A DNA stretch of 64,000 bases from Marsupella aquatica (lineage: Eukaryota; Plantae; Marchantiophyta): NCBI GenBank assembly GCA_973895155.1, contig OZ316895.1, forward strand, positions 18,609,880-18,673,879, written 5' to 3'. The notes under the pieces were generated by a model. It was not told where the DNA came from. It was given only the letters and a program-made list of their open reading frames with translations, and searched no databases. The position numbers and the translations under genes are program-made. Below, in pieces: positions 23,958-46,757 of the stretch (positions within the stretch are counted from its first letter, which is position 1; the number at the start of each line of letters is the position of its first letter).

Positions 23958-25527
23958 TGTGGTGCGTCCCATGGCTCCCTAAACCCAAGAAACCCCCCAG
24001 CTCAAGCCGATTCCCGCAGGTTTCGTGCTTGGCGAGGCCGTTTCCGCGGCTTAGCGGCATGGGACGCTGCTAACCTTCTACTACTACTATTAACATTTTA
24101 CACACATATACTGGACAGATCCTTCATCGGGTCATGAGATACGTAGCCGGCCTAATATAGGCCTTCCCCTGTCTTCCCCTGTCTTCCCCTCCGTCTTGTT
24201 AGGTATGTTTGGATTCCGCCGCCGGAATGATCCCCAATAGGCTTGGTTAAGCTGCTAAGACCTCTCTTAGCTCGACACATCCAACTCTCACTCCCCTGCT
24301 TACTTTCCTTCCTTTTGTTGATGTGGGCACTCTTCACACAAGTTAATGCGACACACAAATAGCAAAATGACTCATTCTGACTGAGTCATACCATGCACTT
24401 GCCATACAAACAGTACATCTCATACACAAGTTCTGCGAACTAAGCCGTGAGGCCAACTCTATTCAGCTCTTAGGCATGAGGAAACATGAATATACACAAG
24501 GGTCACTGTATGACTAACCGAGAGCTTCTCGTACTACTTGATCCCAGCCCGGCTGGTGCAAACTAAAAACTTGCTAAAGAAGAGGCCCTGAGCTCCCCGC
24601 TGCCCAGGTACTTATCCTGGTAGTGGATCCGCCATTCTTTGCATCGTAAGCCTAATCTACTTAACAGTAATCTACTTGCCCGAATCTACCTATGTACAAC
24701 AAGGCAGGAGCACAAGTGTTGCTCCTACCAGTGGGACCGCAATCCCACTAAGCTAAGTGTCAGGGCCGCTCCTGGTTCTGATCCTAATCCTAAACGTGGA
24801 GATCCGCGCCCGCCCTGCCCACTCACGCCTCCTCCCTCCACGTCCGCCCTCCCTAAAAGGAACGGCGCCCTTGCACCGTCACGACACCGGTGGTGGATCC
24901 TTAATGGACGCCCCCAACGCTTCCTCCACAGCCACTGCCGTAGGCTCATTCCCTGACAGATTACCTGCCCTTGACTGAGTCAACTCTCCATCGGCCTGAC
25001 TGGGTCCACCATCGGCGTCGGCATCGGCTCGAGAATCGGTTACGGCCTCAGCCTCGGCTACGGTCTCCCCGGCCTGCTCAAGAGGCGGATCTGGAATACT
25101 GGCCTCCTTACTGAGTAGTTTGGCTTGGGCCGCACCATCCCTACCTGTGATCATAGCGGGATCTATTGCCGTATTCATGTCGGAGGATGGTGCTGGTTCT
25201 ACCTCTTTGGTCACCACGGCTTGTGGAGTCGGATTACTCCTTGACCCTGAAGGTTTCCGCTTTTTCTTCTTTTCTGGTTCGGCAGCTGGTCCCTTCCCCT
25301 TCCCACTTACCTCCGGCGCTGGTGCAGTTGGCGCGGCTTTTTCTTCGGCCAGTACCACTCCTGGTAACTTGGTTGCCCCAATTGGAGTTGGGCCTGATGA
25401 AGACAAGCACCTAAATACTGCGGCTTGTTTCTTCAGCCGCTCCGTTTGGTTGTCGGCCCGCCGCTGGAGGTTCTCCATCTTCCTCGTGATTTCCTCCAAC
25501 TCCTCCTGGGTCTCATCCAGGTCCTTG
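23958..25527 (-). repeat. 5' LTR of element C, distal part (split by the CACTA element); contains the end of the LTR ORF (24879-25527)
   Basis: Colinear with the B LTRs; continues at 43771. Confidence 0.9.
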
Positions 25528-25900
25528 CACTAGAAGAATCCGAGGTGAACTGAGACCGCAATATATGACTCATTTTGGCTCATGTGACTTCATTGTGACT
25601 CAACGTGACTTGACCCACGCTGTGACCCTTGGAGTTGCAAAAGTTGAGACCAAAAAATGGAAGTCACTATTGATACTGGGCTTTGCAACTTGCTTGATAC
25701 CCATTTGTGACTGATCTGTGACTTTATTGTGGAGTCTAGCCTTGTTTCGACGTGACTGCAATATGACTTCAGCGAGTCACATCGTAAGTCACATACATGA
25801 CTTACCCGCATTCAACAACGACTAGCGTGTGACTATTTAGTGTCACAGGAGAGACCAATGGAGACCCTGGCCCGCGTCACACAACAGAACCATTTGGGAC
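25528..25900. repeat. CACTA left TIR and subterminal repeats
   Basis: Dense TGACT/AGTCAC and GAGACC motifs in both orientations next to the TIR. Confidence 0.75.
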
Positions 25901-26382
25901 TCTATATACTCATGTTTATAACTAATAAGGTTCACATGCAAGTTATAACCATGACTAATGAACACAGAGGGACAGTTCATAAGAAGAGAGAGCACTCGAC
26001 ATTACAATACATAGAAACCTGATGTTCTAACTTTAGAAATATAACACATTGAATACAAGAAATGAACATAGCATGAATGACATCCACATGAAACAAAGCA
26101 TCATATAAGCAGATCCTACATAAAACATTCATAAGAATTAAACACAATCACAATCTTGCTAAAAAATGAAGATCATTTGAATTCCAATGGAATAGTTTAC
26201 AATGTGATCAATGTAATTTAGACAAAACAGGAACTCATAATTGATGACTGTAGGATGAGATAACTGAAAGCACATGCATGATACTATGAATCTCCAAGAG
26301 GACATGATTCTTGTACTGTTTCTTGACATCTAAAATCTACATAACATGACTCACACTACAAACAAATAATGGCATGACATTG

Positions 26383-29300
26383 TTATGGATCCTCTATGAA
26401 CTTGCTTGGCCATAATACCAAAGAACCTGCAGCATCTCCAAGTGTCTTTTGAGGAGGATCATCATTTGTGTTTGGAATGGGAAGGACAGCTTTAGGTTTC
26501 ACTAGTAATGTGACTAACACTACTGAATAACCTGGGGGAATCCTCTTGCCATGGAACGTTGTGGAACCAACCTGCACTCTGGCAAATCCTACTCGTGTTC
26601 CACTCTCATCAACAGCTAACAAGCCACTTTGTCCCTCAGCATTAGGTGCTTTCCCCACTTCCACCTTAGATCTTTCTGCCAGCACTGTTCTTGGAGGTTT
26701 GTATGAAACCTTTGACGTGGCTCTGCTCCCACCAGCAGACTTGCTTCGTGTGCGCATGCTTCCTCTCTTCACAGTAGTGAAGCTAGGCTCAGTAGGTTCC
26801 TCTGTTAGGACTGTCACAGTAGCAGGTTCATCACCTGGGAGTGTCATACCAACTAACTCTTTGGTTGGATTTATCTCAACAAGAGGCACACCTGTCATTG
26901 AGAATGATACATTCTGCAAATCATTTATCTCTGCAATGGAGTCAAGATCTACATAGCATGAATCTGGCTCAATGGTATCATTGTCATGCTTGCTGATATC
27001 CTCATTTGCCCCAACATTGATATCATCCACTCCCTTGCCAATGTCATCCTCATCCAAACATGGTTGACTGCCCTCTGTCAAACAAGTTGCTTGTACAGAC
27101 TGCAACTTTGTTGCCTCTAAATTACAGCGAGTATTTGCCAGGTTCTCATACTTCTTCTTTGTAGCACCTGTCTTATTCTCTATGGACACAACAACCACAA
27201 TATATGTTACTGAAAATAACACATTCAACAAACAATGTCAATTCAAACTATACATTTAATAATCATATCCCACACAGTTGTAAAGGCCTTACCTTCAAGC
27301 CTACATGTCGTTGGCATGCCAGAAGAGTGCATCGACTTTGCCACCTCAAGTGGTGATGGTGGAACTCCTGCAGAATTGGAATCAATTTTATCTCTCACCG
27401 ACACAACAGCTTCCATTAATGTCTTGAAGTTCACATGGAACAAGTCAGTCAATGAATTCAAACGTTCATTGATCTCTGGAAGACATGTTTCGACAGCCTT
27501 CAAACGACCACTTATCTCTGTAAGTGAAGATCCACCTCCCTACATGACACAGGGGTATAGGTTCAATCACTCCATATGAAATGTTGGGCAATATATGCAC
27601 AATCAATGTTATATACAGTGTACACCTGAAATTCAACGCAGGTCATTCAATTACCAATCAGAACTCATATAACTTACATGCTTGGAGGATTCAGATGCAC
27701 CCTCTTGAGCCCGGGTGTTCACAATTTCAGCCCTCAACTCTTCTTTTGAAGGGCTTTGCCCCAATTGGGCTTTCTGCACATGCATGGCAAACACAAGTTA
27801 TCGATCAATATTCAGGGAACGTACACTAAAAAACAAAGTTTACATGTAGGGACAGTACACTAAAAAATAGTACATAGTGTAGCATAAATTACATAGCTAG
27901 GCCATTCATTCTTACCAAACGTTTAGCTGTCGGTGCAGTGCCGGTCCTTCCTGTCAGATTAGGGTTCTGAACACTCAACCTGGCCTCGGTCATCTGTGAA
28001 CTCTTCTTTTTTGAAGCATCTGTTACAAAATAAGCTACTAACCTTGCCCACACTTTATCATCACAACTGGCTGGTGGAGGCATATCTGGCTTCTCCCCAC
28101 CTTCCTTCCAAGCCTTATGCATTCTCCACCTCTCTTGCTTGATAATTTTACCTGCTGTACTCTCTAGGCAACCTATGTCCACGCCATCATCACTGCCCAC
28201 ATAATTCCATTTGGCAGCAACATTTTCACATACAGTCTTCCAATCTTTTGGATGCTGTTTTTTAAAATTAATAACACTCACATCTAACCAACGCAATACT
28301 TCAGCTTTCAAATCAGCATGCCATCGGTTCTTGCGAGGACACTCAGCATCCACCCATTGTCTCTCATTCAACTTTACGTTCCCTTTCTTTGTCACCTCCC
28401 CTCGTGCACTGCTCTCGGTAGTACTGGGCGTTGTATTGGCCACCCCTTCATTCACCCTACCTGGGGTTCTGAAGCCACCTGGGAAAATACAATGCCATTC
28501 ATGCTTGAGAACTACATATAGCAGAATGGATGACGACAACATTCAATGCTTCACTTCAAGAAAAATTCTTCAAACATACATACCTGTAGCTCTGCCTGTA
28601 GATGCCTGTGCAGGGACTGCACTCTGAAATTGTTGCGACCCTGGACCACCTGTCCAGCCTAGTACAGGGGCCGGATGATGTCACTTTCTAGGTATGTGTG
28701 TGCAAACATATGTACTGAAAACTAAGTACAAACTGTAGGAAAACAACTGAACATTCACCGACATACCTGTCCCCCTTCCGTGCTGCATCTGCATAGGGGC
28801 ATTAGTGAATACTTGAGTCGATGGTTCGACTGTCCAACCTGCACACATACATTTTCTATCATTATACATGTGCAGAGTCCCCCCCACGTGAATGGACTCC
28901 ACATATAATGAGTTCTTCCATTGCTGACAAGATCAGACATTACCTGCTCCTCTTCCAGCGTTTGTAGGTACTGAATTTTGATATCCCTGCCAATTACCTT
29001 CACCACCTTCCCAACCTTGTTCATTCCACGACCCACCACCATCCTCCCAACCTGGTTCAACCCATGTCTGTCCTTGTGGACATTGGAACTGATCATTACT
29101 AGCATTTGCCCAATCAGGTTGGGCAGAATCTGCATGCAATGGCAGGTGGACAGAATTTCATGTTGTCTGAATCCAATACATCCCAAACAATGTCAAAAAT
29201 TGATATGCAGTCTGAAATTCAGGAGTGCCATGCCTTCACAAAGAACTGGCATATAGATATATACTCACATCCCCACGGTTGAGGTGGACGTCCATACCCA

Positions 29301-30174
29301 CGAGATTGTGGGTTTGGACCTGCTCTGCCTCTACCACGGGCATAACCTAGAGCTTGCCCCCTGCCATAGTATTGGGCACCAGCCTGGGATCTACCACTAC
29401 TACCACCTCGCCAACCTTGATCAGAGGTCAGCCCCCCCTGCTGGTATGGTGCATGCACAGGCTTCGAAGGCAAAACAGAACTGGCAGGACGCTGCATCAC
29501 ATCACCAACTACAATGTCAGGAACTAAGCAAGGTACATATGTGTAGTACTGAACATATGAAACCTCTAAACAAGAGTTTTTAACTCAAAACCTTGTTGGG
29601 AAAACTACTTACATGTTTCTTTTGGGGCTGCTCTGCAATGTATTCATCTTCATAACCCCCATCCTCATCCATTTCCTCTGGAAAATACTCATCATCTGCA
29701 TCTTCTTGTCTAGTGTCTGCACCCACCTGTGCAGCATCAATGTCATCTCCACATTCTGCCATTGTAGGTACGACCTTCTTGCTCAACCTGTCACTCCGAC
29801 GCACAGGCCCAGAGATAGTGCTGGTCACCCTTCTTGCGTACTCCTTTTGTTTCTTTGAAAATGCTGTGGCTCTGCGACATTCCAATATGAGAATACAGTC
29901 ACAATTTCAGTGCCACATTGAACTATTCATGTCACACAAACTCAGCGGAGGGGTGTAGTTGAGAATCGTTCCCTTACAATTCAGCCACATCCTTTTCCAG
30001 ATCCAGTTCTGCGATTTTGGCTTTCACGTATGCTCGTTGTTCCATAGCTTTCCTTTCATACTCACACATCTCTGTGTCACTCTGTTCCATCCTACTGGAC
30101 CACAAAAACATGTCATCTATGGTCACCCCGTATAACACAATGCAACCACAATCACCAGGCATCCATCCATACAT
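26383..30174 (-). CDS. CACTA TnpA/ORF2-like multi-exon gene (exon boundaries approximate)
   Basis: Exon-like ORFs 30174-29974, 29885-29580, 29500-29219, 29139-28933, 28542-27889 (W..L..YF...SSQMTEAR...TGRTG, Ptta/En/Spm-like), 27503-27243 and 27231-26383 (FHGKRIPPGYSVV...LPIP...TLGDAAGSLVLWP, TnpA-type C-terminus); GT/AG sites flank them. Confidence 0.75.
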
Positions 30175-30246
30175 CTGTGTTGCTTCAGAATTACTTTATT
30201 ACACATCCTTCCCCTCACTAATGTCTATGCAAACAATTCACATTAC

Positions 30247-33200
30247 TCATGGCACAGGCACACTGTTGGCATCTGCATCTCTGAATTCGCCTCCTTCAGC
30301 AAATGCATCTACCCTTGTCACAGGAATGAAGTCCCCGCTATCATGAACTACAGGCACTTGGTCTGAACGCCGACGATCAAAGGCACTATGAGAGTGTAAA
30401 TGAAACTCAAGGTTTGATCCTTCCATCCGGCGTTGCCTGGCCTGTTTATGACACACTACACGCCAACCTGGGGAGTCTTCCACATCCAGGAAGAAAGCTT
30501 GCTCCACCTGACTAGGAAACACAAATGGCTCAGACCATTCGGGCAATTTCCCTCTGAAATTGGCCAGCAAGAAACCGTCGTTGTCTCTCTTCATGGTAGC
30601 CCTGTTACCAAGCCAATCCTGCCGCACCCATGAACCTTTCATAAGAATCACAGGACTGGACACCGCCCCATAGTCCAGAGCCCATATGTCAACTAATTCT
30701 CCCACATATCCCATCTCCATCCAGGCCCTGTCGTGATTGTGGCTCTGTTGCTCAAATACAGTGATGAGCCCGCAGTCATTCGTCACCCTGTAGGCACTGT
30801 CACCATCCTTCACTCGGAAGTGATTCCCATATGCTCTCATCCGTTTGTAAGTCTTCACTTTCAGGCTAGGGGCATTAGACAGTAGGTAAACATCTGCATC
30901 CATGTCTGGGTGGGTCTCGTGATGCTCTCTAATTGCCACTCTGATCCACTCCATGAAACCTGGAAAAGTTGTTCCTGCAGTGGGATGGGCCGCCTTCAAT
31001 GACTCATACTCCCTGAACGAACAACCACACAGCATTAGCTTGGGTAAACATGAACAGGCTGAAGGAGAAAACCACACGAACACAACATTTAAGCTCATGA
31101 ACTGGATTATAGCACATGTATGCACTCACTGTATCCAGGGTTCCATCACCACAGTGTTGTGCAATACAAAGTCATGTGCCAAGTCTCTCATAGATATGGT
31201 CAGGTTCTTTGTGGTTGCAGCCCCTTCCAGTACTTCACCTACCACCCCTTCCTCCTCATCAGAATTCCACACCCTGGTCTTCACATGCTCATATTGTGCT
31301 ATGTATTCGGTCAGAAATCCCAGAGTCTCATCCTTGATGTAACCTTTAGCCATGCTTGCTTCAGGTTTGTAATATGTTCTCACGTGACCTTTGAGTAGCT
31401 TCATGTACCGTTCCAAAGGGTACAACCAACGAGCACTCACAGGCCCAAATTGGTGTAGCTCTTCCACAACATGGACAAGTAGGTGGGTCATGACATCAAA
31501 AAATGCGGGAGGAAAATAAATCTCCAGGTCACACAGCACCTGAGCGACATCTTCTGTCAGTTGTGGGAAGTGTGTTTCATCCCAAACCTTCACACAAATA
31601 CGACGAAACACATCACTGAGTCGCATGATCACAGTACGAACAGGCTTCTGCAACAGGCCCCTCAGGCATAAAGGCAACACCTGTTGCATCAACATATGGT
31701 AGTCATGGCTTTTCATACTACCAAGCTTTCTAGTCATGATATGCTTCTTGAAAGCACTGCCATAGTTTGAAGGAACCTTCAAAGAACTCAACCTCTGCAC
31801 AAATAGTTCCCACTCTGTGTCTGTCAGAACATAGGGCGCTTGGTACTTCAAGAGCACATCAGCTCTGTGGGCATGTGGCCTCAACCAAAGATGGGGTTTC
31901 ATTCCCCTCTGTTCAAGATCCAATCTCACTGAACCAGTGTCTTTCTCTCCACACAAGAATCTGAGTAGACTCTCACAAATATTCTTTTCAATGTGCATAA
32001 CATCAATGTTATGTTTGCTTGGCTCAAACTCCTGCATCGTTGCAATGCAAAAGCGTCAGGAAATGCCTCAAGTTTAGTCTCTCTCTTCGAAATGAATGCA
32101 CATGCTCTGAACCAAAACATGTATCCCAATTAGCATCAACTCCAAGAGGCTTACCCTCCAGTACTTGAGCTCCAAGTCCAATATGCTCAGTCTTTTTACA
32201 CCATATCGCTTTATTGGATCACTCACTCCATCTTCCCTGCCCCCTCGTTTGATATAGTCATCCCTCAGTGCTCCCCACTGCCTGATCTCCTCTTTGGTCA
32301 CTCGTGCCGGGGGTCCACGTTGCTCAATCTCATTGCCAAAGTGTGCAATCAGTGCCTGTCTTTCTCTGTAAGGGTGATCTGTCTTCAGAAAACGACGATG
32401 GCCCATGTATATCACTTTCTGCAGGGCTCTGGAGTACTCACTGGTGACATTGCGCCCACAGATAGTACAAGCACAATATCCTTTTGTTGTTTGGCCTGAT
32501 ATCATCCCATGGGCTGGGTAGTCAGCTATAGTCAGAATGACAATGGCTCTAAGGATGAATGGGTTTAACCTCCCAAGCCTCTGTAGGACATCATATGTGA
32601 GAACTCCTTCCTCCCAAAGCTTTCTCAATTCCTCCACTAGGGGAGCCAGAAACACATCTATGTTGGCAGATACAGCACTGTCTGGCCCTGGTATCAGTAG
32701 GACCATCAGAACAAAAAATCGCTTTGTAGTCATCCAAGGAGGAAGGTTATAATTCAAAATAGTTACAGGCCAGCATGAAAATTTGTTGTTCTTGTCTCCA
32801 AATGGGTTTACCCCATCCAATGACAGCCCAAGTCTGACATTCCTCGGCTCAGCAGCAAATTCGGGATACATCTCATCTATGAGTTTCCATTGCCTTGAAT
32901 CTGCAGCATGTCGTTGTAGCCCATCATCACTTTTCTTGTCAGTTGCCCAAGTCATCATCTCCGAGATGGCACGGCTTCTGAACATCCGCTGAAGTCTGGG
33001 AATGAGTGGAAAATGACGAAGTACCTTGGCGGGAACCATAGACTTTCCTGAGTTCCGATACCTGTGCTTCCCACACTTAGGGCATGTCAACGATTCTTTA
33101 TACTCCTTTCTGAAAAGAACATGCCCATCAGGACAGGCATGGATCGAATCATAGTTCAATCCAAGATTAGATATGCATCTTTTTGCCTCGTACATGTTCT

Positions 33201-33978
33201 TGGGCAAAATATTACCATCTGGTAGCACAGTTGTTCGCAAGAATGCCAACAACTCAGAAACCAAAACGTTGGGGACATTGTGGTTGCCGCAAATGTTCAG
33301 GAACATGATGACAAATCCCAGTTTAGAACATTTGCTACCGGGGTACAAAGACTTCCTGCCTTCCTGTATTTGCAGGGGAGAGCCAAACATCCCATCATGC
33401 CCAGGGGTTTCCTGCCCTATCTCAAACTCATCAAGAGGCTCTTCGACAGGGGGCACACTTGCATCTGCAGCCGTATCCTCTTCATTGTCCAGCCCATCAT
33501 GAAATGCATCCAAGTCTTGGAAGATGTCTCTCACCATCTCTTCCACATGAATTCCTTCGTCACGTGGTGCTGCCTGAGCACCATCCCGTTGGAGAGCTGA
33601 CAACCCACAGAGACCAGCTACAACATTTTCAAATGCACCAGGCAGAACCTCACTTGCCCGTCTTGCAGCATTGGCAGCATCAAATTCTAACCTCCACTCC
33701 TCGTCGGAAGAATCTTCCTCTGCAGGATCATTCCAAACTCGATGTCGTGGATCTCTTCCATGAACCGCGATATGCCGCCAAACCTCATTCAGACCCCTGG
33801 TACGGGATCCTTGGCAGATTGCACAAGGACATCTCATCCTACTGGCTCCTGAAAGTCTGGTTCGTAACCTTTCACGCTGCCAAAGCTTATTATCATGGCG
33901 TGATATCCTTGTGGGATGATGCAAAGGCAGTGCCTGTGCCCTGGGCTGGGTCTGGGGAGGGTGGTGACCAGGGTGCAT
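30247..33978 (-). CDS. CACTA transposase TnpD/Tnp2 (three exons; introns about 32154-32032 and 31129-31013)
   Basis: CPC..C transposase-associated motif, IHACP, RNVRLGLSLDGVNPF, YNLPPW, DYPA, DVMHIEKN, KSHDYH, FPPAFFDVMTHLLVH, WLYPLER and EPFVFPSQVEQAF; the predicted GT-AG introns restore one frame. Confidence 0.95.
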
Positions 33979-34411
33979 TGTAACAGGCTGGGAGCTCTGC
34001 AGTCATGGACAGCAGTGAACAAGGATGCCTAATGGTGGTATTTGTGTTCCATATATCCCTGACTGTATCTGCCAAAAGAGTTAACATAACGTGTACTAAA
34101 TTCTCACAAACCCTAAACCACCCCAAAAGAAAAAAACAGGTTCGCAAGTAGTGTACCTATTGTCAAGTGAATGACACAAAATTTCTAAATGTTGGAGGGT
34201 GTCACCACCTCCTCCGCTGTCCTCAAATGTACCGCCTCTGCATGTACGTTTACAGTGACACCCCCAGGCAGTAGGAAACAACAATCCGCCAACAGTAAAA
34301 TAAGCCCAACTGCCACCAACCATAACAAGGTACATTAGTTCAAAGATCACATTTATTTCAATGATCTGATTTATACAAAAAAACTTGTGTCCAAACTGAT
34401 GCTACTACTCC

Positions 34412-35290
34412 TCACTCTGATTCAGAATCGCTAATGACCCATTCCTCACTTGTTGTCTCATAGTCCTCTCTGTAAGGATCCTGACCCTTCCGTGGCCAGG
34501 CCTCAAAAAGATCATAGTCCATTGGGTTTTGACGCTTCCCAGCTGCTACTGATTCCACAAGCCAAGCATATGAAACCACAAACACATTATGGGACATGAC
34601 ATAAAAGCGAATGTCTCCCTTCCCAAACTTGCGGCAGGCTTTGGGATATGACTTAGTAATGACATGAGTGGTGTCCTCTGTTATATTCTCCTCCACTGTC
34701 CCACCTAGGTCAAGCACTGTGGACTTGTACACTTTGCACTTAACCTCTCCAATTCCCGCCTCCACAAATACCATGCTCAGCCCTTTCAGAATGGGGGTTG
34801 GTTGCTTCGTCTCCTCAGCCAACATACTCTTCAGCCTTGTAGAGCTCTGTCCTTTGTTGAGTACAGGTCCATATTGGAGATCAGCAAGCCGTGCCTTTGC
34901 TTCCCAGACTTCTTGTTCAGCCCAAGCTGATGCAGTAGCTTCTTCATCCTCCCACAACTCATATTGCTCAGTATCCTGTACAATCTTATGTGCTATGGAA
35001 TCTGTGATCCAAGAGGCCTCAACTACTTTTAGGCCTTGCTTAGTAATTGCAGAATTCATGTAGGACCATGACCACTTCTTTATCACTGATAGCCATGTCC
35101 CTGCAACAACATGTGTAGTCTCTGGAGTGATGTCCTGAACTACAGTGCCATGGAGCTCAGAGAATCGTTTCTGTACAGTTGGCCAATGCACTTTGGTCAA
35201 CCCATGCTGGCCATGGACCAAAATCGCTCTGACCCCTGTAAACACTGCTGGGTGGTCACACTTTCTACGTTTACCAGGCTCCATGTACAC
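34412..35290 (-). CDS. Tandem BRCT-domain protein (292 aa), CACTA cargo
   Basis: Two repeats with BRCT hallmarks (F/L.G..., GG/HG-TV...TTHVV/I, VV..W..DS/ES...Y.L); basic N-terminus KRRK; intact, intronless ORF. Confidence 0.85.
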   Translation of the reverse strand: MYMEPGKRRKCDHPAVFTGVRAILVHGQHGLTKVHWPTVQKRFSELHGTVVQDITPETTHVVAGTWLSVIKKWSWSYMNSAITKQGLKVVEASWITDSIAHKIVQDTEQYELWEDEEATASAWAEQEVWEAKARLADLQYGPVLNKGQSSTRLKSMLAEETKQPTPILKGLSMVFVEAGIGEVKCKVYKSTVLDLGGTVEENITEDTTHVITKSYPKACRKFGKGDIRFYVMSHNVFVVSYAWLVESVAAGKRQNPMDYDLFEAWPRKGQDPYREDYETTSEEWVISDSESE

Positions 35291-35876
35291 ACACCCTACG
35301 TGATGACAGTGAATTTTGGAAGAATGGGTTCACCTGACAATACAAGGACAACAAAATTCCTGCTTTTTGAGTTGATCTGGCCCACTGGTGCTCAGGTCCG
35401 ATTTTGATAGGTACAAGGGATATGTGAACAATACGTACTAGGCACCTGCACGGATGCAGGACATTGTTTGAATATATACTACAAAATCCATATCCGTGGT
35501 GAAATGAAGTGCAACCAACTTGTCATGGCACATACATATTTTGTTGTAAAGGAGGATACATTCAATGACAAACTTATAGGGCAATTTGATTAATTGCATG
35601 CCTGATAATTTATACGCTTACAACTTAGAAGTCCTGTTTTAATTTAGCAGTGTGATGAAAGTGTTTATGAAAATGACCACTCAGCCTAAATACTTCCAAG
35701 AAGGCTTGTAAGGATAAGTTTGTATAGGCATGTACCCAGCCACTGACGCCAGAGCACAAGATAAGTGCTGCCTATATAAACTCGCCTACCCAACTCCTTT
35801 TCAAAATTGGAATCTCTGCAATCTCAAAAAATAGTACATCCACATCAGGTGCACTGTGCATGTACAATGTTCAGCT

Positions 35877-36557
35877 TCACAGCCAAGATATGTGATCTCT
35901 CACAGGAGTGCGCGAGGTAGGATCAATGGCATGGCGATGACAATAAAATATCCATCGATCAACACCATGTGCAGAGTGATCATAGATTTCTCTGTCACAA
36001 GCATAACCCTCTGCTTGATGATCTTTCAGACAATGATAGTGCCACATAGTGGGACACCTAGCACAGTGGACTATGTCAGTCCAGTAGTCATCATCATGCT
36101 CACCACATGCCTTGCACCTATGAAGTGGGCAAGCTGTGGCATGAGCAGGCAAACACTCAAAACAGAAAAATCTCACACAAAAACGGTCTGGACATTTCCT
36201 AACATTTGCTGCAGCATCAACAGAGCCCTCATAGGACCCCAACTTCCCACACTGTGCACACTTAGCCTGCTTCTCCAAACAATCAGTGCACATCCAGTCT
36301 CCCTGGTGTGTTGACGGGAGGCCCACCCCTGGACAGTTGTTTTCTGCAGCAAGGTCAGACTCCGGGTTGAGGTGGAAATGCCTCATGCAAGGGCCCTCAC
36401 AAATGACCAGGCCCCCACCATCGTCACAAATGGCACAACAATGAGCTGCCTTCTGGAAAATCTGACTTGCAGAGAAGTTAGTAGCATCTGCCCCAAGTAC
36501 ACCTGTGTTTCTCACCTCTGTCACACGCTTTTTGGCTTGAATTTTAGGCCGTGCCAT
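35877..36557 (-). CDS. EDM2-like PHD finger cluster protein (226 aa), CACTA cargo
   Basis: CAICDDGG...CEGPCMRHFH...C..C.....C..CGKLGS...CPLHRC..C...C.RCP..WH..CL...YC..H.ID....TPVRDH matches the PHD region of plant EDM2 as recalled; no other EDM2 domains. Confidence 0.88.
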   Translation of the reverse strand: MARPKIQAKKRVTEVRNTGVLGADATNFSASQIFQKAAHCCAICDDGGGLVICEGPCMRHFHLNPESDLAAENNCPGVGLPSTHQGDWMCTDCLEKQAKCAQCGKLGSYEGSVDAAANVRKCPDRFCVRFFCFECLPAHATACPLHRCKACGEHDDDYWTDIVHCARCPTMWHYHCLKDHQAEGYACDREIYDHSAHGVDRWIFYCHRHAIDPTSRTPVRDHISWL

Positions 36558-36568
36558 GCCTGCGCATG

Positions 36569-36712
36569 AGATAGACTCTACAATTTAGCAGACTGCACAG
36601 AAAGTAATATATATTTAGCATTTAAGGTACAAAGGCATTTAGATAGACTCTACAATTTAGCAGACTGCACAGAAAGTAAAATATATTTAGCATTTAAGGT
36701 ACAAAGGCATTT
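36569..36712. repeat. 72-bp tandem duplication (2 copies, 1 mismatch)
   Basis: AGATAGACTCTACAATTTAGCAG...AAAGGCATTT at 36569-36640 and 36641-36712. Confidence 0.92.
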
Positions 36713-37327
36713 GCTACTGCAATGAATTGGAATGGCCACACAAGGATGCAGAGCACACATACTTTTGGTATGTTGAGCCCACACACAAAACTGATCCCCT
36801 AATACAATTTCTCCACCAACACCTCAATTTTAATTGTGGCTATGATTCACCAAAGGAGATCTGCAACAACATTTCATGCATTTGAATCACATACAATAGT
36901 CGTGACATGTAAAACAGGCATTCTTCGAAGAGGATTGGTATGAAGCAGTGTCATAAGGGTTGAAATTTATACATCCTAAATAGGTTATGATAGTGGCTGA
37001 GACAAATAAGTGAGGCATAAATCATTTTGCATATTATCACATGGCCCATTAATTCATTCAACGTTGCAATGTTCACCAGGTTAAAGCAGTCATGAAAGCA
37101 GTCTTTCAATAGAGACTTTTATGCGAGTTTGCTAGCCTCTTAAATTAGGATATTTTGCTTAGTGCAGGCATAATAGGATATAAGTTATATACTGTTGACC
37201 CTAAACCCTGGACCCAAAATTGCTCATACATCAAAATTTTAAGTAAATATCCTCTGTGTTGAAGTCAGAGTGTTAAGCTATAGGTCAATGGTATCTGGTC
37301 TGTGCATGCGGTGTGACAAGTGGTCCT

Positions 37328-37777
37328 CTAGAGCATGTGATCCAAACATGTGTAGACACCAAAGTCACCGGTGGTGGGGTCTGGGAGGGCAGGACAAGTG
37401 ACATCACCAGGCACACTGCAGGATGGCGAGTGGTTCCAAATGATACATTGTGCTCTATGCAAAAATCGGCATCCAAGAGAACGGTCATCCAATTCTGGGC
37501 CAGAAGCCCTACAGGCAGGACAGTCATATTGGCAACTGTGTACACACCCTTGGCACCTAATTTGTGGCGGGTCATGTACAAGAGACACAAATACCAAGGA
37601 TGTCGGGAAGGGTACTGAAGCAAGTAGAGGCCGGCTGTAGTTGTTCCTGGAAACAACAGGGTACTCAAAGTACCATGCAGACTGGGCTGGAAGGATCCCA
37701 AGTCTGACATACTCAAGGCGCAACATCTCTGCCTTGCGTGCAAGTCGCACATGTTCAGCGTTGCGGGTCCTCACCAT
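37328..37777 (-). CDS. Hypothetical Cys/His-rich protein (149 aa), possible CACTA cargo
   Basis: ATG-initiated open frame in a GC-richer island, co-oriented with the other cargo ORFs; CQGC-x3-C-x3-CPAC cluster; no family recognised. Confidence 0.4.
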   Translation of the reverse strand: MVRTRNAEHVRLARKAEMLRLEYVRLGILPAQSAWYFEYPVVSRNNYSRPLLASVPFPTSLVFVSLVHDPPQIRCQGCVHSCQYDCPACRASGPELDDRSLGCRFLHRAQCIIWNHSPSCSVPGDVTCPALPDPTTGDFGVYTCLDHML

Positions 37778-38772
37778 AAGTGTTGCTTTTGTTGTGATGT
37801 CCTCTGTTCACGTCCTTTGATGAGCAAGGTGAGCAGGAGGTCGACTTGCCTCGCCAACAGCAACCACCTAAACTAATCAGTTCCCACTCAACTACAGGTC
37901 ATAGTATACACATAGCATGAAACGTGCATAGTACATATTTGATTCTGAGTTTATGAGTTTCCTAAGACAAAGAGCTTGGTGATAAACCCATATTCTCGAT
38001 GGACATGTATATCAATCGTATTAAAATCCTGTTTTTTCATCCAGAAAGACCGAAAGTCTCACCTTGCAGGTTGCAGCAGAGAGAAAATTCACTGGTTGTC
38101 GTGTTGTGCAAGTGAACCTCCACTGATGCCCCCGGTGTAGCCCCTCAGATGCAGGTGACACTTACCAACTCCCAAGTTGCCTGGTCTAACAGAAAATGCT
38201 TATATCTTCAGAACTTTATAGAGCAAGTACATGATCACATACTTCTGGATCTATTCATATTTGGAACTCTTGCCAACTACAACTCCCATTATGCACAAGC
38301 TCACATCAACAGAGAAAAATACAGAATGCATACTTACTATGGCTCTAAGCACCTTCACTACCTTGTTGAACCCAGTCCTGAAGTCTTTTCAGCGTGTTTG
38401 TTGTGCTGTCTCCTTTGGCACCCAACACCTTAGTCCTTGATGTAACAGAATGCGATTTTACAAGTTAGATGCTTTGGAACCTTCTATGGTCTTAGCTGAA
38501 TTGATGTCATCGTAAGTGGTGAAAGACAAGGAAGACGAAAGCTGGTTGAAGAGCTGTGGACAACACACTAGCATGAAGTGCTTCAACCAATCCACTGCCA
38601 AACGGAACTCTTACACAGTCACATTCTTTCAGTAAACAGAAACTCAATCAAACTTCATAATCAAAGTACAGACTCTGAAGGACCAAAGGAGGATGTTGTG
38701 AGTTTCTCTGTTGTTTAATGTGTTACCCTTCTAGTTTCGAAGTTAGCAAATGCTGAATAATGTGTCTACCAG

Positions 38773-39112
38773 ATCTTCGAAAAGAAGCCCACCACAATTA
38801 AGAACTTTGGTATCTGGGTGAGGTATCAGAGTTGTACAGGTTATCCCAACATGTACAAGAAATATTGTGATACCACATTAAACAACCACACAGCAGATGT
38901 ATGATGAGATGGCTTCTTGTCATAGAGTTCGGTTCCCTTGCATCCAGATCATCAAGACTACGACAGTCCCTGTCTCTCTGTGCAAGCGAGAAAGTACCAA
39001 GCAGTTCCATGATTCAAAGATCAAGTTCCCCTTGACGTACCGCAAGATTCAACCTCCATCGCGAAAGCTAAAGACGACTTACAAGGCCACCAAGCCCAAC
39101 ACATTTGTTTGA
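38773..39112 (+). pseudogene. RPL18A: Captured last exon of 60S ribosomal protein L18a (eL20), frameshifted
   Basis: [27 protein letters not shown]...DTTLN / [20 protein letters not shown]...[18 protein letters not shown]...[15 protein letters not shown]; preceded by an AG acceptor. Confidence 0.93.
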
Positions 39113-40951
39113 GTAGTGCGGGTGTAGGTTCCCAATTTTGAAACAATTTGGCTCATTTTATGTCCCGAGGGACTCCAGGAGTTTATGTATTGAGTTTCTA
39201 GGTCAAGATGCTTAATATAAGGAAATTCAATTATCACCTCGTTCCCAACTTCTATTAATTGAATATACACAAGCTGGAAGCAAGAAGACAAGCCACAATC
39301 TAGCATCTTAGCCAAACACAATCGTCCCGACAAAGCAAAACTCAGCTGGACAGAAGTCACTCGGATCCACAAAAAATTGAAGATTCACCTCCAAGCCGGA
39401 GGCCGATCACTTCAGTACAGCAGCTTCTGGACGGAACAAACTCTGCTCAGCCCCACAAAAACACAAATGTTAAGGCTCCAAGTCAGAGCTCACAAACAGA
39501 AACTCAGATAAATAACATTCAAAATCTGTCCAGGTTTGTGCAAAGTGTACATATTCATTCTTCTGGAATGAACACGCAATGCATACATCGCCTAGACACA
39601 GTCATTATAAATCATTGGGCAATTGGGGACCACTAAGCAGGTGTGTTCCTATTTCGAGGCTACAAGAAAGGATAGAGTGACACCAAACTGAAGAGTACAC
39701 CAAAAGAAAAACAGCAAGAACCAAAGTCAATCATGTGTGGATATTTTGCACATGGGAAGTTCCCCTGAAGAAGCACCAGTTGCTAACATTGTCACCCGAA
39801 CCACACCCAGTTTATTACCTCAATGTCTTCAGCCTCAATATCCAATCCTCAGCCCCCTGGTGCTTCCGTGTTTGTTCTGAAAATTTCTGTGATGAAATAA
39901 TTATTCAATACATTCAATAGCAAAGAGAACTCAATCACAAAAGAAAAATAGTTAGTGTGAATGCTAATTTCTCAACACTTAACTAAATTCAAACCACCAA
40001 TTCAAGTAGTAAGTTTCAAAAACTTGCCTTTACATGAAGAGAAACCAATTGGCCATGCATGTTACTAAAGCAATAAACAAATAATTAGGCTCAACCCCGG
40101 GCTCAACACACAGGCAAACTACTCGAAACATGCTGCTGAGAAGTAACATTTTTTGAATGTCAGACTATGTGTAAGTGCCATGATCGTGCTCCTACGTTTC
40201 ACAAGGAGGGCTGGCCCGAAAGGGAGAAGCAACAATGTGGAGTCTATACACGTAGCACAAATCCCAGTTTAGAAGGGTGGATGAAGTTCAGACAAGAGTT
40301 CAGAACTTGCCATTTGAGATTGCCAATCTGAACTTCACATTCAGACAGGACTTCATCCAGTTCAGGAGTTCAGATAGGAGTTCAGACAATCTGAAGAGGA
40401 CTTTGGACTTGAATGAGGGACAGCGTGGCCATATAGTTATCCTTGTGGCCTTCAGCTGCGTGTCTCAGGCTGAATTTCACTTTCCAGTTTCGAGAGTTCT
40501 GAAGGTCTAGTTTTAGTAACTTCCTCCTGACTCGACTTGGGAGCATTCTCCCTATTTGCTAGCTTGTAGTTAGCTTTGACTCCTGTGAGCTTAGTTGACG
40601 ACCCTCTTGAGATATTAACAATTAGAACAAACACAAGTTGTCAAGACAGATTCCACCGGAGCAAAAAGTCCAAAATCAGGTGAAAGAAAACCTAAGGAAA
40701 GTCCATAAGAACGAAAGTAGGAAGGCAGGTGCACGGGCCACCGAGAAAAGTAAAGGATGCATGTGATTAGTGGGGAGGGATCTTAGCAAAAATAGGGGAA
40801 AGCAAGGGAACTTGCTGCTAAAATCAGCTGAACGATTGCACGGTTCCTATAAATTTAGTGGACCTTAAGGCCGTCTGTTCAGCCCCCCACCCCATTGCCA
40901 GAGCACGGGGCACAAGGCATGTTCTGATACAGGGAGGAGCAAAACAGTCAT

Positions 40952-41997
40952 GTCAAGCAAGAAATGTGGAGAGACCAATCAGTAAGCAAAAATAGGGGAG
41001 AACATACATACATGATCAGCAGCAGCAGGAAACAAGAAAGATGATTTTGGGTGGCATCTTAGGGTCGGGGACACCACTGCAACACCGGGACTTAGGATAT
41101 GAGTTGTTCTTAATCTGCTAGTAGCATCCGGCAGGCCGGCGACCCATGGCAAAAGGGCAGAGCAACAATCCGCTAAAACTACCGAGTCTCACCTTTGCGC
41201 TACTGACTGTCACCTTTGTCCAAGGTAGCTAGTAATAGCAAGTTGAAGTCCCGCTCCAAGTTGTCGGCTTCCACTCCAAGCTCCCTAAAAGATTGTGGCC
41301 TCAGGTCCAAGTCGTTAGCTCGCACGCGCAACTCCCTAAACCTACACACAGCGGAAGCTTAGCTCACCAACAACTTGCAGAAACAATGACCTCCCCTCTG
41401 AAACTGATAAAAACACCTGAATACAAATAGTGAAGCACGAGGACAGAACAGGGAGAAGCGTTTTGCAGTTTGGGACGACAATGCTAGGAGTGTATACACT
41501 TCGGGCAACAGGGAGGTCCAATAATAGTTTGAATCTGACGGATGAAGCTCTAGGCGAATGAGCTCCAGGAGATTGGGTGCATGATTGAGTAGGCAATTGT
41601 AACAGCAGGCACCTGGCGATTGAAGGAAGCAGCATTCGGCAATGGACCTAGGCAGCTCGCGAATTTTGCTCAGCAGCGATGTCACCTAGACCCTAAACAC
41701 GCAATGCATACATCACCTAGACAACTATACTTGCAGCCACGAGGTGAGTCCGCGATAGGGGATTGAAGGAAGCAGCAAGTCAAGCAAGAAGCGTGGAGAG
41801 ACCAATCAGTAAGCAAAAATAGGGGAGAATAGACATACATCAGCAGCAGCAGGAAACAAGAAAGATGATACTCTGTTCCATCTTAGAGTCGGGGACACTA
41901 CTGCAACACCGGGACTTAGGATATGACTTGTTTTTAAACTGGAGATAGCATCCAGCAGGCCGGCGACCCATGCCAAAAGGGCAGAGCAGCAATCCGC
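40952..41997 (+). repeat. Diverged ~220-bp direct repeat (40952-41173 and 41778-41997)
   Basis: Shared GTGGAGAGACCAATCAGTAAGCAAAAATAGGGGAGAA...GCAGGCCGGCGACCCATG...AAAAGGGCAGAGCA.CAATCCGC. Confidence 0.88.
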
Positions 41998-43539
41998 CAT
42001 GTAGCGATAGGCGAGAGCAGCGATTACGACGATGAAAGATGGTCAAAGCTGAAGCAAAACCCCTAAAGATGCAGCTTGGCCATACTCTCTTTCCTCACCT
42101 CATAGCGCTAGGCATTCAACCTCCCTCTTCAATGAACCTCACAACAGCTTGAAGGTCGATAGATTTTACCTCGTCTCCTGAGCAGAAACGTCTGCATTAG
42201 CTGAACAGAGCCCGGAACAGAGCTATCGCATTTAGCCTCCCGACTCCAAAATTGAACGCAACACAACCTCCAACTCCCAATGGCAGCTCAGTAGGTTGAT
42301 CAGCTCGGTCAATGCAGGTCAGTCGACCTCAATAGCCACACTAGAAGCTCACCGCAAGTCACTCAAAGGTCAGACTAGAAGCTCCGCCGCCTTCACACCG
42401 TAGCAAAAAACAATGAGACCAATATCGAGCAAGGCGACCCTGTTTGAATATTTGGCGACCATCAGGCTCCACCCCTCCTTTCTCGCTACCGTTCCCCCAT
42501 GTGATGGTTAAGCTTCTGAGGACACAATCAATCGCACAAATGTAGCTTAAAGCAGGACCTCACTAAGCAGACTATCGGTTAGGACCTTATAGACATAGAG
42601 ATAGATAGGTCAATGCAACCTTACTTGGGCCGATGCAGCATGTCTCTTCACAATGTGAAGCAGCGCAGCATTCCTCCACCTAGCTCGCAGTGATCCTCCG
42701 CCTTGCTTGCAGTAACCAGCCTCCGCCTAGCTAGTTTGCACTGTCACGGCTGCAACTTTTTGTGCAATGACTTGGCCCTCCTACCAACTACGAGCTCCCA
42801 AAAGTATGTCGAGCAGATGTACACTCAGGCACCACCTCGTAGAGCTCAACTCCAAGTCGGCAGCTCTCACTTGAAACTCAATAGCAGCTTAGCTCACCAG
42901 CAGGTTGAAAAGCGACAATGGACTCCCCTCAAAACTGATTGGCAGACCTCCACACTGACGCTCGTAGCAGGCCCAATCCTAAACACATTTGCACCCTAAA
43001 GTCCAGTCGCGCTCAAACACTTTCAAACGACCCTGCAGGAAGTTCGCGAAGAGTGCAGCTGGAATGAAGGTCGTCGACTCCCAATTTCCCTCGCAAAACC
43101 AACCTCTGCGGCACACTGACCCTGAACACTTAGGGCAAGTAGTACCCCCAAAATCTCTCGCAAAACCAACCTCCAAGGTACACTGACCCTGAGGGAAAGT
43201 AGTACCCCTCACATGTGGGCAGCCATCGAGTGACTTAGCAAACAGGTTGGTTTGGACATAAAAGAACCAATGCAAATGACTTAGCAAAAAGTTCAATGTG
43301 GGGAGAGTGCACTTTGGTCAAGAACAAGGCCAAATATAGTCAGGTATGAATCCACATTATAAGTGAAAGTACCCACCATTCTGATGAAAACCCCCATATT
43401 TATACCCATTATATTTGGACTTATTGAACCATGAGTGTGCAATATGTAGTTGCACCGGGAGTTGCATATTAGGGATTGGCATCCGAAATTGGCTAATGGG
43501 GTATGCATGCTGACGGAATTTTAAAAAATGATGTCCAAT

Positions 43540-43770
43540 TCATATTGCACTATTGTGGAGTAACTAACATAACTTACCTATTTCTTACTTACTAGTGTTA
43601 CAATAGCGACATTGGATAAAGTTGTAAGCATGACTTCCCACAACCTCACCAAAACTTAGTTGGTATGATGTAACTAACATGACACCCACAAACTTGGAGT
43701 CGCATATTTATGAAGGTCTCGCACAAGTCACATAGGGGAGGGTCTCAGAATGGGTGGTTTTCTTCTAGTG
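43540..43770. repeat. CACTA right subterminal region and TIR
   Basis: TAACTAACAT twice, AGTCAC/GGTCTC motifs, ends TTCTTCTAGTG. Confidence 0.7.
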
Positions 43771-46757
43771 TTGCGTGCCTCCTCTAGTTCCTTCTGGGCT
43801 TCCTCCCGTTCTTGTTTCAAGGTAGTCCTCTCCTCCTGGGTTGCTTTTAGCTCCTTGTCGAGCTCTGCAATGATGACAGACTCCATCTGGTTCATCTTGG
43901 CGTAAGTCTGTTCGAGCATCTCGTCCTTCTCCCTTAGGTCGGCCTTGAAGCTGGCCGTCAGGGACGCAAGCTCCTGCTGCAGCACCATAATCCCTTGATA
44001 GGATTTCCCTAACTCGGCCTCCTTCTGCTCAAGGGCTCCGCGGATTTTCTCGAGCTCCCCTTTCAACGCCCATTCCTTTCTTTGGGTCTCCGCCATGGCC
44101 CGGCTGTTGGCTGTTATGTGGGCCTCCTTTGTATTCTTCAGCTCTTGCTTCCACTTCTCCCTCTCTTTGATCGTGTCGGCCAACTCTTCCTGCGTCTGAG
44201 TCAGTTTATCCTTGATATTCTGATTATCAGCCTGCGCGGTGTCCAACTGCCCCTGCATGATGTTCAGCTCATGTCGTTTAATCCGCAGTTCATCTTGGGC
44301 TTTCTTGGCCGCCCTTAGATCTTCAATCTCGGCTTCCATCCTCCTAAGCCGCCGAATGACCTCGTCCTTCTTGCTTCTCTCTAAAGCCACCGCTTCTTCT
44401 AATTGGTGCTTCTCCAACTGCTCCCTATGGAAAAAGGGTCCTACCTCCAACTCCTCTCCAAAGATGCCGAGCGCAAGTTCCCCACACATCTCACCATACT
44501 CCATGGCTCTATTCTTAGCGTAGGTGGAGTAAGTAGAAGTGATCGGCATCGCCCATCGCGGCCTCTGCTCCCAAGCCGTCCTGCGGATCTCTTCAATCGT
44601 GGCTAGAGGTTTGCTTCCTTTTTTGGCTAGCCGCCTGATGTCCTCCGGCCAATCTCCTCCTGGTAAATCCTTTTCCTTAGCCAGGGCGGCCTCCTCCTCC
44701 TGCTTGATTCGCTCCTGAAATTCCTGCACCGTCTATTTTATGCCGTCGAAGCTCGGGGGAGCAACATCTGGTGGGGGAGACTCAGGGCTACTCTGCTGGT
44801 TGGGGTCCCCTCGCACTACCCTTGGAAGTGTGGGGACAAACCGGCCACAGGTCCTTACTCCTGGAACGTGATGGTCCGACCCATAGCCAGAATTATCATG
44901 GCTGCAGTCCTCCACTGCCTCCTCTACCTCTTGGACGTCCGGCTTCTCCCTCTCCTCTTCGTCGGTAGGAGCTTCAGGCAATTCTGCCTCAAATTCGGAG
45001 CTTGAGGTTCCCACGTACATTCGAACACCTGGCTTGGATTCCGGCCTGATTCTCTCCTTGTCTCCAGCAAAGGGGTTTTCTCTTGTGAGCCGGTGTAGGC
45101 CTACCTCTGTAGTAGTGTCCTGCATTGTTGCCGTTGCCGTTGTTGTTGCCGATGCCGATTTCTTTTCTTTCTCCAGTAGTTTCAGCAGACTCTGCATGCC
45201 TGGTTGCTGCATCGGCAAGTCTTCCTTCTTGGGCCTAAACACCTGCTCGATCGTAGGACTAACAGGTGGTTGAGGCTTCTCAGCCAACGGCCTCGGCGTT
45301 GGAGCTTCCTCGGCTGCCCTTACCTGCAGGGGAAGTACCGGGGCAAAAGTCTGACCTCTGGCATACCGGCACAACAGCGGCATGTGATAGCCCAGCCGCG
45401 ACACGCTCCCCATGCCGATTACCTGCTGCTCCTCCTTTAAGATCTTCTTCAATTGGTTGAGGAGGTACCCGTTGTAGTCCCGGCTTGGGTCTGGCCTTTC
45501 TGCCAGATAGACCTGTGCCTTGCCGATCTCTGCCCTCGGCAAGTTACAATGCATGGTCACCCGCAAGAAGTCGATCATCTCTCCTATGTGCGGGTTGGTG
45601 CAGGTGTTCCGGAAGAAGCCATTCTTCGTTGATGGCCCGGGGAATGACCGGAACTCCTTGTCAGGCAAGGTCTTCCTGGTATCAACTTTGGTCTTATTGC
45701 CTATCGGCAGGCCAAACACTTCGGCAATTACCTTGGGAGTAAGATAGAAATCCTTCCCATATATCCTCGTGCAATTGGTCTCGGGTTCCCATGACCCCAC
45801 GAATTCTAATAGGTCTGACTCCGGTACCTCCGGGTTCAGCCATGGTAATCTTACAAAGGCCTCCAAGCCGGATCCGGCCATGAAGCCTTGGTACTTCTTG
45901 GTCTGCATGGCCGTAAAGCATGCATCCTCCTCCCGTGCAAAATGTAGTTGCACCTCCACCGGTAGGGTTGCCGCCCAGCCCTTCCAGGTGTCATCCCTGG
46001 TTGGAATGGCCTTGATGGGATCGACCTCCTCCTCTTCGGCTTCTCCCTGCCTCCTGCTCTGCTGCTCGGCTGGCTTCTTTGGTGCCGCCGACCTCATTCT
46101 TTTTGCCGGGGTGGCTTCATCGTTGACGGCTCCCTTCCTCTTCATCTCTGCTGCCGTGGAGGTTTCTCCTAGCACCATTGCCTGGGTCCACCTTTCCGTG
46201 CTACCCTTTAATTCCCAATGTATGTCGTTGCAGTTCTTGATGGCCTCTCGGATGCCGACGACGCTTTCGTTGCAAAACAGAAGATCGTCGAGTTGATTGG
46301 AAGTAGGCGTCCACAGGAACTCGTCCTTGATGAGTTCGCCTCCTAAGAAAGCCGTCTTCTGCAGCTCCCACAATCGAGCGAGCTCCTGTCGTTCTCGAGC
46401 TGCCCTTTCTGATTCCTCGTCCTTGTAAGTCTTGATGTACTCAGTTGCCCGTTCGAACAGGCATCCCCAGAAATGTGCCGCTTGATTGACGTTGCTCATA
46501 CCCTCCTTAGGTCGATCGTCGGTATCTACTCTCTCCCCGAGTGCTTGCCTAAGCAGCTGACAGTAGTTGGCCTCCCGTAGTCGTCTGCCTAGTTCGTGCT
46601 CGCAAATGAGCCACCATCTCCTGCAAGCGCTCCTTACCCCTCTCCTCTGCCGGTCCTTCTTCCCGTTGATCCTTCCTAGCCGCCGACGCTTAATGCGCCC
46701 TAACCCTAATCGGGTTTTCACCCTCAGCCTTACCTCCGGCCTCGGCCCGGGTTCCAT
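43771..46757 (-). pseudogene. LTR-encoded ORF, copy in C 5' LTR (one stop at 44733; split by CACTA, ends at 24879)
   Basis: 674-aa and following in-frame segments; the frame continues on the other side of the CACTA element. Confidence 0.9.

Follow-up and report, generated by a model that had tools for sequence, protein, structure and literature searches.

The window, by which we mean the whole stretch of 64,000 nucleotides that was analysed, carries a full-length CACTA transposon on its minus strand, and one of the cargo genes of this element encodes a stand-alone EDM2/NSD-type triple PHD protein of 226 aa. The features to which the following analysis refers are listed here.

25528..43770, minus strand: whole CACTA element of 18,243 bp, with TIR, TSD and Tnp2 transposase
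26383..28542, minus strand: TnpA-like exons (Transposase_24, Ptta/En/Spm; weak match)
30247..34002, minus strand: CACTA transposase gene, with the Pfam exons Transpos_assoc, Transposase_21/Tnp2, DUF4218 and DUF4216
34412..35284, minus strand: downstream cargo ORF with tandem BRCT (Pfam BRCT, E=2.6e-13, two stretches)
35877..36557, minus strand: PHD ORF, single exon, 226 aa, with a disordered tail (residues 1 to ~28), a short helix and an EDM2/NSD-type triple PHD
36525..36557, minus strand: Met and H3(1-10)-like tail ARPKIQAKKR, seen in the translation and by its conservation in relatives
36558..36570, minus strand: candidate splice acceptor (...GCAG/GC ATG), with the AG at 36561-36560, 2 nt ahead of the ATG
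36569..36712, no strand assigned: 72-bp tandem duplication, 99% identical, in what is presumably an intron ahead of the ATG
37328..37777, minus strand: upstream cargo ORF, 149 aa, Cys-rich, starting MVRTRN, with no Pfam match

The element belongs to the CACTA (En/Spm) transposons, as evidenced by its CACTA termini, a 3-bp target-site duplication (TTG/TTG) and the Tnp2 transposase. Its TIR starts with CACTA and has 11 perfect bases and 21 of 30 matching positions. It is inserted in a Ty3 ORF, and the ORFs on its two sides, 24879-25529 and 43728-44732, share one Ty3 reading frame. The element is flanked (1-25527 and 43771-64000) by Ty3 LTR retrotransposons that are nested in one another and have a long additional coiled-coil ORF, and almost the whole window appears to be made of repeats. 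Read along the minus strand, the element begins with ~6 kb that lack a long ORF on that strand, and then come the 149-aa Cys-rich ORF, the PHD gene, the tandem-BRCT ORF, the Tnp2 exons and the TnpA-like exons. Direct repeats of 159, 94 and 49 nt are found at 40949-41997 and 43077-43192 in the long non-coding 5' part. The stretch with the PHD gene is also present in six DNA runs, which stem from four studies and as many organisms, and as one run (X3) gave 5893 matching contigs with identities from 99+ to <90%, it belongs to a multi-copy family. A search for the loci of relatives yielded one weak locus (L001) in metagenomes and none in viral or prokaryote genomes; the location of the gene within a CACTA element is thus known for the copy in the window, and the relatives are known as proteins.

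The 226-aa protein has Pfam matches to PHD-1st_NSD, PHD_NSD and PHDvar_NSD, all below the curated cut-offs, and further profile matches to NSD2, NSD3 and AIRE; the Atlas assigned it to a Streptophyta PHD_NSD cluster at 0.92. It thus has the NSD-type triple PHD module of EDM2, and the N-terminal RFD and the long C-terminal part of EDM2 are missing. An AlphaFold model based on 85 alignment rows reached a mean pLDDT of 87.6, with residues 1-6 and 8-24 below 50. Foldseek matched this model to PZP, NSD and AIRE PHD structures, with low query TM-scores of 0.15-0.27. A total of 249 related proteins were found at E<=0.001, and among the best 150 of them a short stand-alone family can be told apart from long plant proteins. 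The best host matches come from liverworts, ferns, algae and angiosperms. Judged by the named relatives, the host of the element is probably a non-seed plant. Three of nine scanned host proteins have the layout DNMT1-RFD plus PHD_NSD (P0028, P0024 and, weakly, P0023), and we take the host relatives to be EDM2 from this domain layout, their records being named hypothetical or PHD-type. In a FastTree analysis of 45 modules, the short family forms one long-branch clade with a support of 1.0; P0011, P0009, P0010, P0086 and P0016, with module cover <60%, were left out of this tree, which does not place the donor of the short family.

On either side of the PHD gene lies a further cargo ORF. The downstream BRCT ORF has its own acceptor-like AG ~50 nt ahead of its ATG, and with it a phosphopeptide reader lies beside a histone reader within one CACTA element. 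The upstream 149-aa ORF gave no match with Pfam and no usable one with the Atlas, and the two relatives that were found both share its MVRTR start. This start resembles the VRTK of PAF15, which binds the UHRF1 PHD in the way H3 ARTK does, with only a small effect of a K5A exchange (PMC7060239), and the 149-aa protein could act as another H3 mimic, or it could be bound by the PHD protein.

The sequence-only reading of this locus had pointed to a likeness between the start of the PHD protein and the histone H3 tail, in register from the free N-terminus, and the translation confirms this: A1, R2, K4, A7 and K9 match the H3 string at 5 of 9 positions, and M-A-R-P-K contains the Met, the small residue, R2 and K4 of the iM-Z-R-x-K motif. 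Shuffling of the first 15 residues gave five matches at P=0.0036, and with Ala1 fixed because of the Kozak bias, P was 0.024, 0.016 and 0.008 for residues 2-10, 2-15 and 2-20, respectively, all of these values being post-hoc and uncorrected. Over all six reading frames of the window, M-small-R-x-K occurs in 7 of 1587 Met-started 11-mers. The PHD ORF is one of the seven, and two others of them read MARPK out of frame within Ty3 ORFs, so that a single MARPK start is weak evidence. Taken alone, this sequence is thus no more than suggestive, and it is the conservation in relatives that carries the case.

This conservation was analysed with 21 tails, 13 from clade A and 8 from clade B, omitting P0156, which has the same N-terminus as P0008, and P0012, P0025, P0108 and P0141, whose N-terminal part is absent. 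As R2 served as the anchor, its presence in 20/21 tails is partly circular. K4 is found in 18 of the 21 tails and is never replaced by Arg, A7 in 12 (Ala or Ser in 16), and K9 in 11 (Lys or Arg in 17, with Arg in 6). The other positions mostly differ from H3, with T3 in two, Q5 in three, T6 in none and R8 in four tails; S10 is found in 0/21, and positions 10-15 vary freely, the top residue reaching at most 5/21. In clade A, M-[AT]-R is present in all 13 rows that include the N-terminal part, in ten of them at residue 1, and examples are ARCKRPAKK (82% identical to the window protein), ARPKVKSSK (37%) and ARPKKKAFK (38%); relatives at 37-38% identity thus still begin with ARPK and have K9. P0009 reads ARTKVQSSK and P0014 TRTKQKSKM. 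In the eight rows of clade B, the register S-R-x-K-x-x-A-x-K/R lies internally, after at least 7 called residues (as in SRPKVVARK and SRPKQMAKK), so that the register does not always need a free Ala1. The expected positional conservation is borne out for K4 and K9. Between the tail and PHD1 lies an unalignable linker of 28-48 residues. The tails are related by descent, and the counts are not independent. Seven variants were listed among copies of the gene in four DNA runs, with contig ends masked. Those at A7 and K9 are silent, those at Q6 and R10 change the residue, and none of the seven falls into the segment from I5 up to and including the ATG and the AG.

From these data, we consider it about an even chance (roughly 0.5) that the tail is a mimic of H3(1-9) that would dock host readers of R2 and K4 in trans, with the PHD module on chromatin, to the benefit of the element. 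The earlier proposal of an H3 mimic is upheld insofar as the H3 register holds in the relatives, while the two consequences that had been drawn from it, autoinhibition and a decoy for H3K9 methyltransferases, turned out weaker. Against a mimic we count the mismatches at T3, Q5, T6 and R8, the loss of K4 in three clade-A members (P0003, which is 75% identical to the window protein, P0004 and P0007), and the chance occurrence of MARPK.

The caveat that a MARPK start can be a simple NLS stands as the main rival. According to this explanation, the tail would be a basic NLS or a binder of DNA or of an acidic surface, its Met-Ala would stem from ATG-GC or from a host MAR start, and the likeness to H3 would be incidental and retained through common descent; we regard this as doubtful, though it deserves serious attention. 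The tail is indeed rich in Lys and Arg and disordered, K6 and K8 are common as well (8/21 each), and the chance MARPK starts in the window and the three family members without K4 also fit. Host relatives likewise start with MART or MARV and lack K4: among the 16 host-type proteins with an M-small-R start, 12 have no K4, named liverwort and algal proteins included. This suggests that A1-R2 may be inherited and that K4, A7 and K9 would be the addition of the lineage. However, an NLS has no known need for the preference for Lys over Arg of 18:0 at position 4; in the 137 host-type proteins, small-R-x-[KR] ends with Lys in 75 and with Arg in 72 cases, and the K:R usage at tail positions 5-15 is about even (38:28). 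Nor do we know of a need of an NLS for Ala or Ser at position 7, where A7 follows in 8 of the 75 host small-R-x-K sites (K9 in 5), or for a fixed distance from Met.

Among the host-type proteins, only 4 of the 137 start with M-small-R-x-K (P0032, P0044, P0093 and P0158), all of them short grass EDM2-like PHD proteins, from Eleusine where named, that begin with MARKK, MARMK or MARRK. They lie on a separate branch of the tree (three are included), a weak hint of convergence. A MAR start, mostly MART or MARV, is also seen in the EDM2-like host proteins P0015, P0019, P0020, P0021, P0026, P0039, P0046 and P0066, and the conserved A1-R2 start of the hosts may itself be an H3-like end, or it may be the first strand of a domain. 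In P0019 (Riccia sorocarpa), the linker ahead of PHD1 contains KKQPRKSTEPAPKR, which resembles H3 from K9 to K18, perhaps by chance.

Autoinhibition, in which the tail would gate nucleosome binding by folding onto the PHD module of the same or of a second molecule, is improbable in our estimation. In AIRE PHD1, D312 binds R2 of H3 and D297 binds K4 (PMC2261226). The R2-binding acid is kept in PHD1 of the window protein (E54) and is Asp in 19/21 family rows, which speaks for self-binding, as does the linker, which is long enough. At the position of D297, however, the K4-binding acid is lost and replaced by His39, with His in 19/21 family rows. In PHD domains that read H3K4me3, a Trp of the aromatic cage is located two residues ahead of a zinc-binding His; this position is His or Gln in 21/21 family rows, and an aromatic cage is thus absent. 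The pocket pattern underlying these counts matched 85/137 host rows and 21/23 family rows. The family has a His at -2 before Cys1 in 19/21 rows and has lost the Asp or Glu that 69/85 of the matched host rows have at -3, and these changes ahead of Cys1 could be a co-adaptation to the tail, a point in favour of self-binding. The AlphaFold model leaves the tail undocked, with most of its residues 1-24 at pLDDT <50, though most of the 85 alignment rows lack the tail. A complex prediction of the tail (residues 1-30) with the PHD module (31-225) scored 0.01 against a mark of 0.34, in an alignment-free mode that is unbenchmarked for peptides, and was given no weight either way. In clade B, the seven or more residues ahead of the motif would block a canonical Ala1 pocket. 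Together with the model, in which the tail is undocked, and with the N-terminal extensions of clade B, the pocket changes of PHD1 make canonical self-binding the weaker reading.

A free Ala1 depends on the start codon, and there is a slim chance that the Ala is internal, with an upstream coding exon joined by splicing, for instance from the GT at 37368, to the AG that lies 2 nt ahead of the ATG. The AG/GC-ATG context favours such an exon, and clade B shows that the motif can be carried internally. Between 39500 and the acceptor, 10 donors score >=6/9, and 4 of the 10 add an in-frame upstream ATG; the GT at 37368, within the 149-aa ORF, is among these four and would join in frame. A Gly directly precedes Met in P0004 and P0009, as in the frame of the window, which would fit a conserved AG-GC-ATG as far as this can be deduced from protein. 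A contig of run X5 skips 36608-36695, a part of the 72-bp duplication. Several observations argue against the upstream exon. Met directly precedes [AT]-R in 13/13 clade-A rows, including three ORFs that were called from further upstream. The 149-aa ORF and its two relatives run exactly 12 residues beyond the position of 37368, with a conserved Cys-Leu, so that the GT there is probably coding sequence. A profile search among products of 51-450 aa gave 8 matches, the longest of 257 aa, and none of the fused form. The ATG at 36557 is the probable start, with Met presumably being removed, and the intron upstream of it would be a 5' UTR intron.

Least likely is the proposal that the tail ties up SUVH/KYP H3K9 methyltransferases as a decoy substrate. 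Enzymes of the G9a/SUV39/SUVH type need Arg8 next to the target Lys. The window protein reads A-K-K-R and not the substrate motif A-R-K-S/T, R8 is found in only 4 of the 21 tails, S10 in none, and position 9, unlike position 4, accepts Arg, so that a decoy is unlikely despite the frequency of A7 and K9, the A-R-K or A-R-R at positions 7-9 of four clade-B tails, and the cooperation of EDM2 with SUVH6 through ASI1 (PMC9910501).

For the H3 mimic that acts in trans, we propose the following mechanism. The PHD module would bind nucleosomes, as would be expected from its homology to EDM2, which binds H3K9me2, and the tail would bind host readers of unmodified R2 and K4 in trans, sparing its own PHD1. 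In the AIRE complex, backbone hydrogen bonds are formed by R2, K4 and T6 of H3 (PMC2261226), and a Pro at position 3 therefore need not block binding. Likely partners would be surfaces that accept both a free and an extended N-terminus, and for clade A a UHRF1-type PHD would also be suited. WD40 readers of the RBBP4/MSI1 or WDR5 type would be such surfaces, fitting a small-R-x-K core that works at the N-terminus as well as internally. Acting in this way at the chromatin of its own element, the PHD protein would recruit or titrate a complex for silencing or RNA processing, and as a presumed outcome the formation of the long multi-intron element transcript would be helped. In addition, the basic tail may serve as an NLS. 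The PHD protein may thus help the element to handle host silencing.

A wider and more tentative idea, which we think could be true but would not presume, is that a CACTA lineage has assembled a histone-code toolkit from captured parts (the PHD reader with its H3(1-9) mimic, the VRTR protein and the tandem BRCT) that hijacks host readers of the H3 tail at the heterochromatin of the element. If so, histone mimicry, which has so far been reported from viruses and host proteins, would be an anti-silencing strategy of transposons. Anti-silencing proteins encoded by plant transposons are established, and so is the mimicry of histone tails by viruses. A transposon-encoded H3 mimic or a CACTA-borne EDM2-type PHD was not found in the full-text literature searched, in which most subscription journals are missing, and PHD does not occur in the main text of two transposon papers (PMC13547354, PMC13317346). 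If the tail binds H3 readers, this would represent a compact and testable attack of a DNA transposon on the histone-reading layer of silencing. The PHD protein is also a natural minimal PHD module of EDM2 from which it can be learned what the EDM2 reader binds.

Two components of our model are already known: the class of H3TM motifs, and anti-silencing cargo of transposons (VANC). VANCs of the VANDAL (Mutator-like) transposons are described as sequence-specific anti-silencing accessory proteins (PMC10398659). The PHD protein resembles them as a transposon-encoded accessory protein with a presumed anti-silencing function, and it differs in belonging to another transposon superfamily. To our knowledge, no VANC has a PHD or a histone mimic. 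EDM2 of the ASI1-AIPP1-EDM2 complex binds H3K9me2, and where introns contain heterochromatin it helps full-length transcripts to form (PMC7529245, PMC9910501, PMC3632883). With it, the PHD protein shares the NSD-type triple PHD, but it lacks the RFD and the C-terminal part, has lost the acid before Cys1, and belongs to a long-branch clade. The closest counterpart of the tail is the H3TM (iMet-small-R-x-K), which occurs in 48 of 20,996 human proteins; with a methylated K4, H3TMs bind readers of the PHD or Tudor type, and with an unmethylated K4 they bind NuRD (Chen et al., 2021, PMC8166343). As in the H3TM proteins VRK1 and PCLAF/PAF15, iMet-small-R-x-K starts a disordered tail of a chromatin-type protein, a likeness at the level of sequence from which the binding of readers is predicted. 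Unlike these proteins, the PHD protein is cargo of a plant transposon, its likeness to H3 extends to A7 and K9, the tail is fused to a PHD of its own, and in one clade the motif is internal. The viral histone mimic of influenza NS1 and the internal ARKT of G9a are likewise H3-like strings that engage readers (PMC8166343), but these motifs are not N-terminal, and the carrier in our case is a plant DNA transposon.
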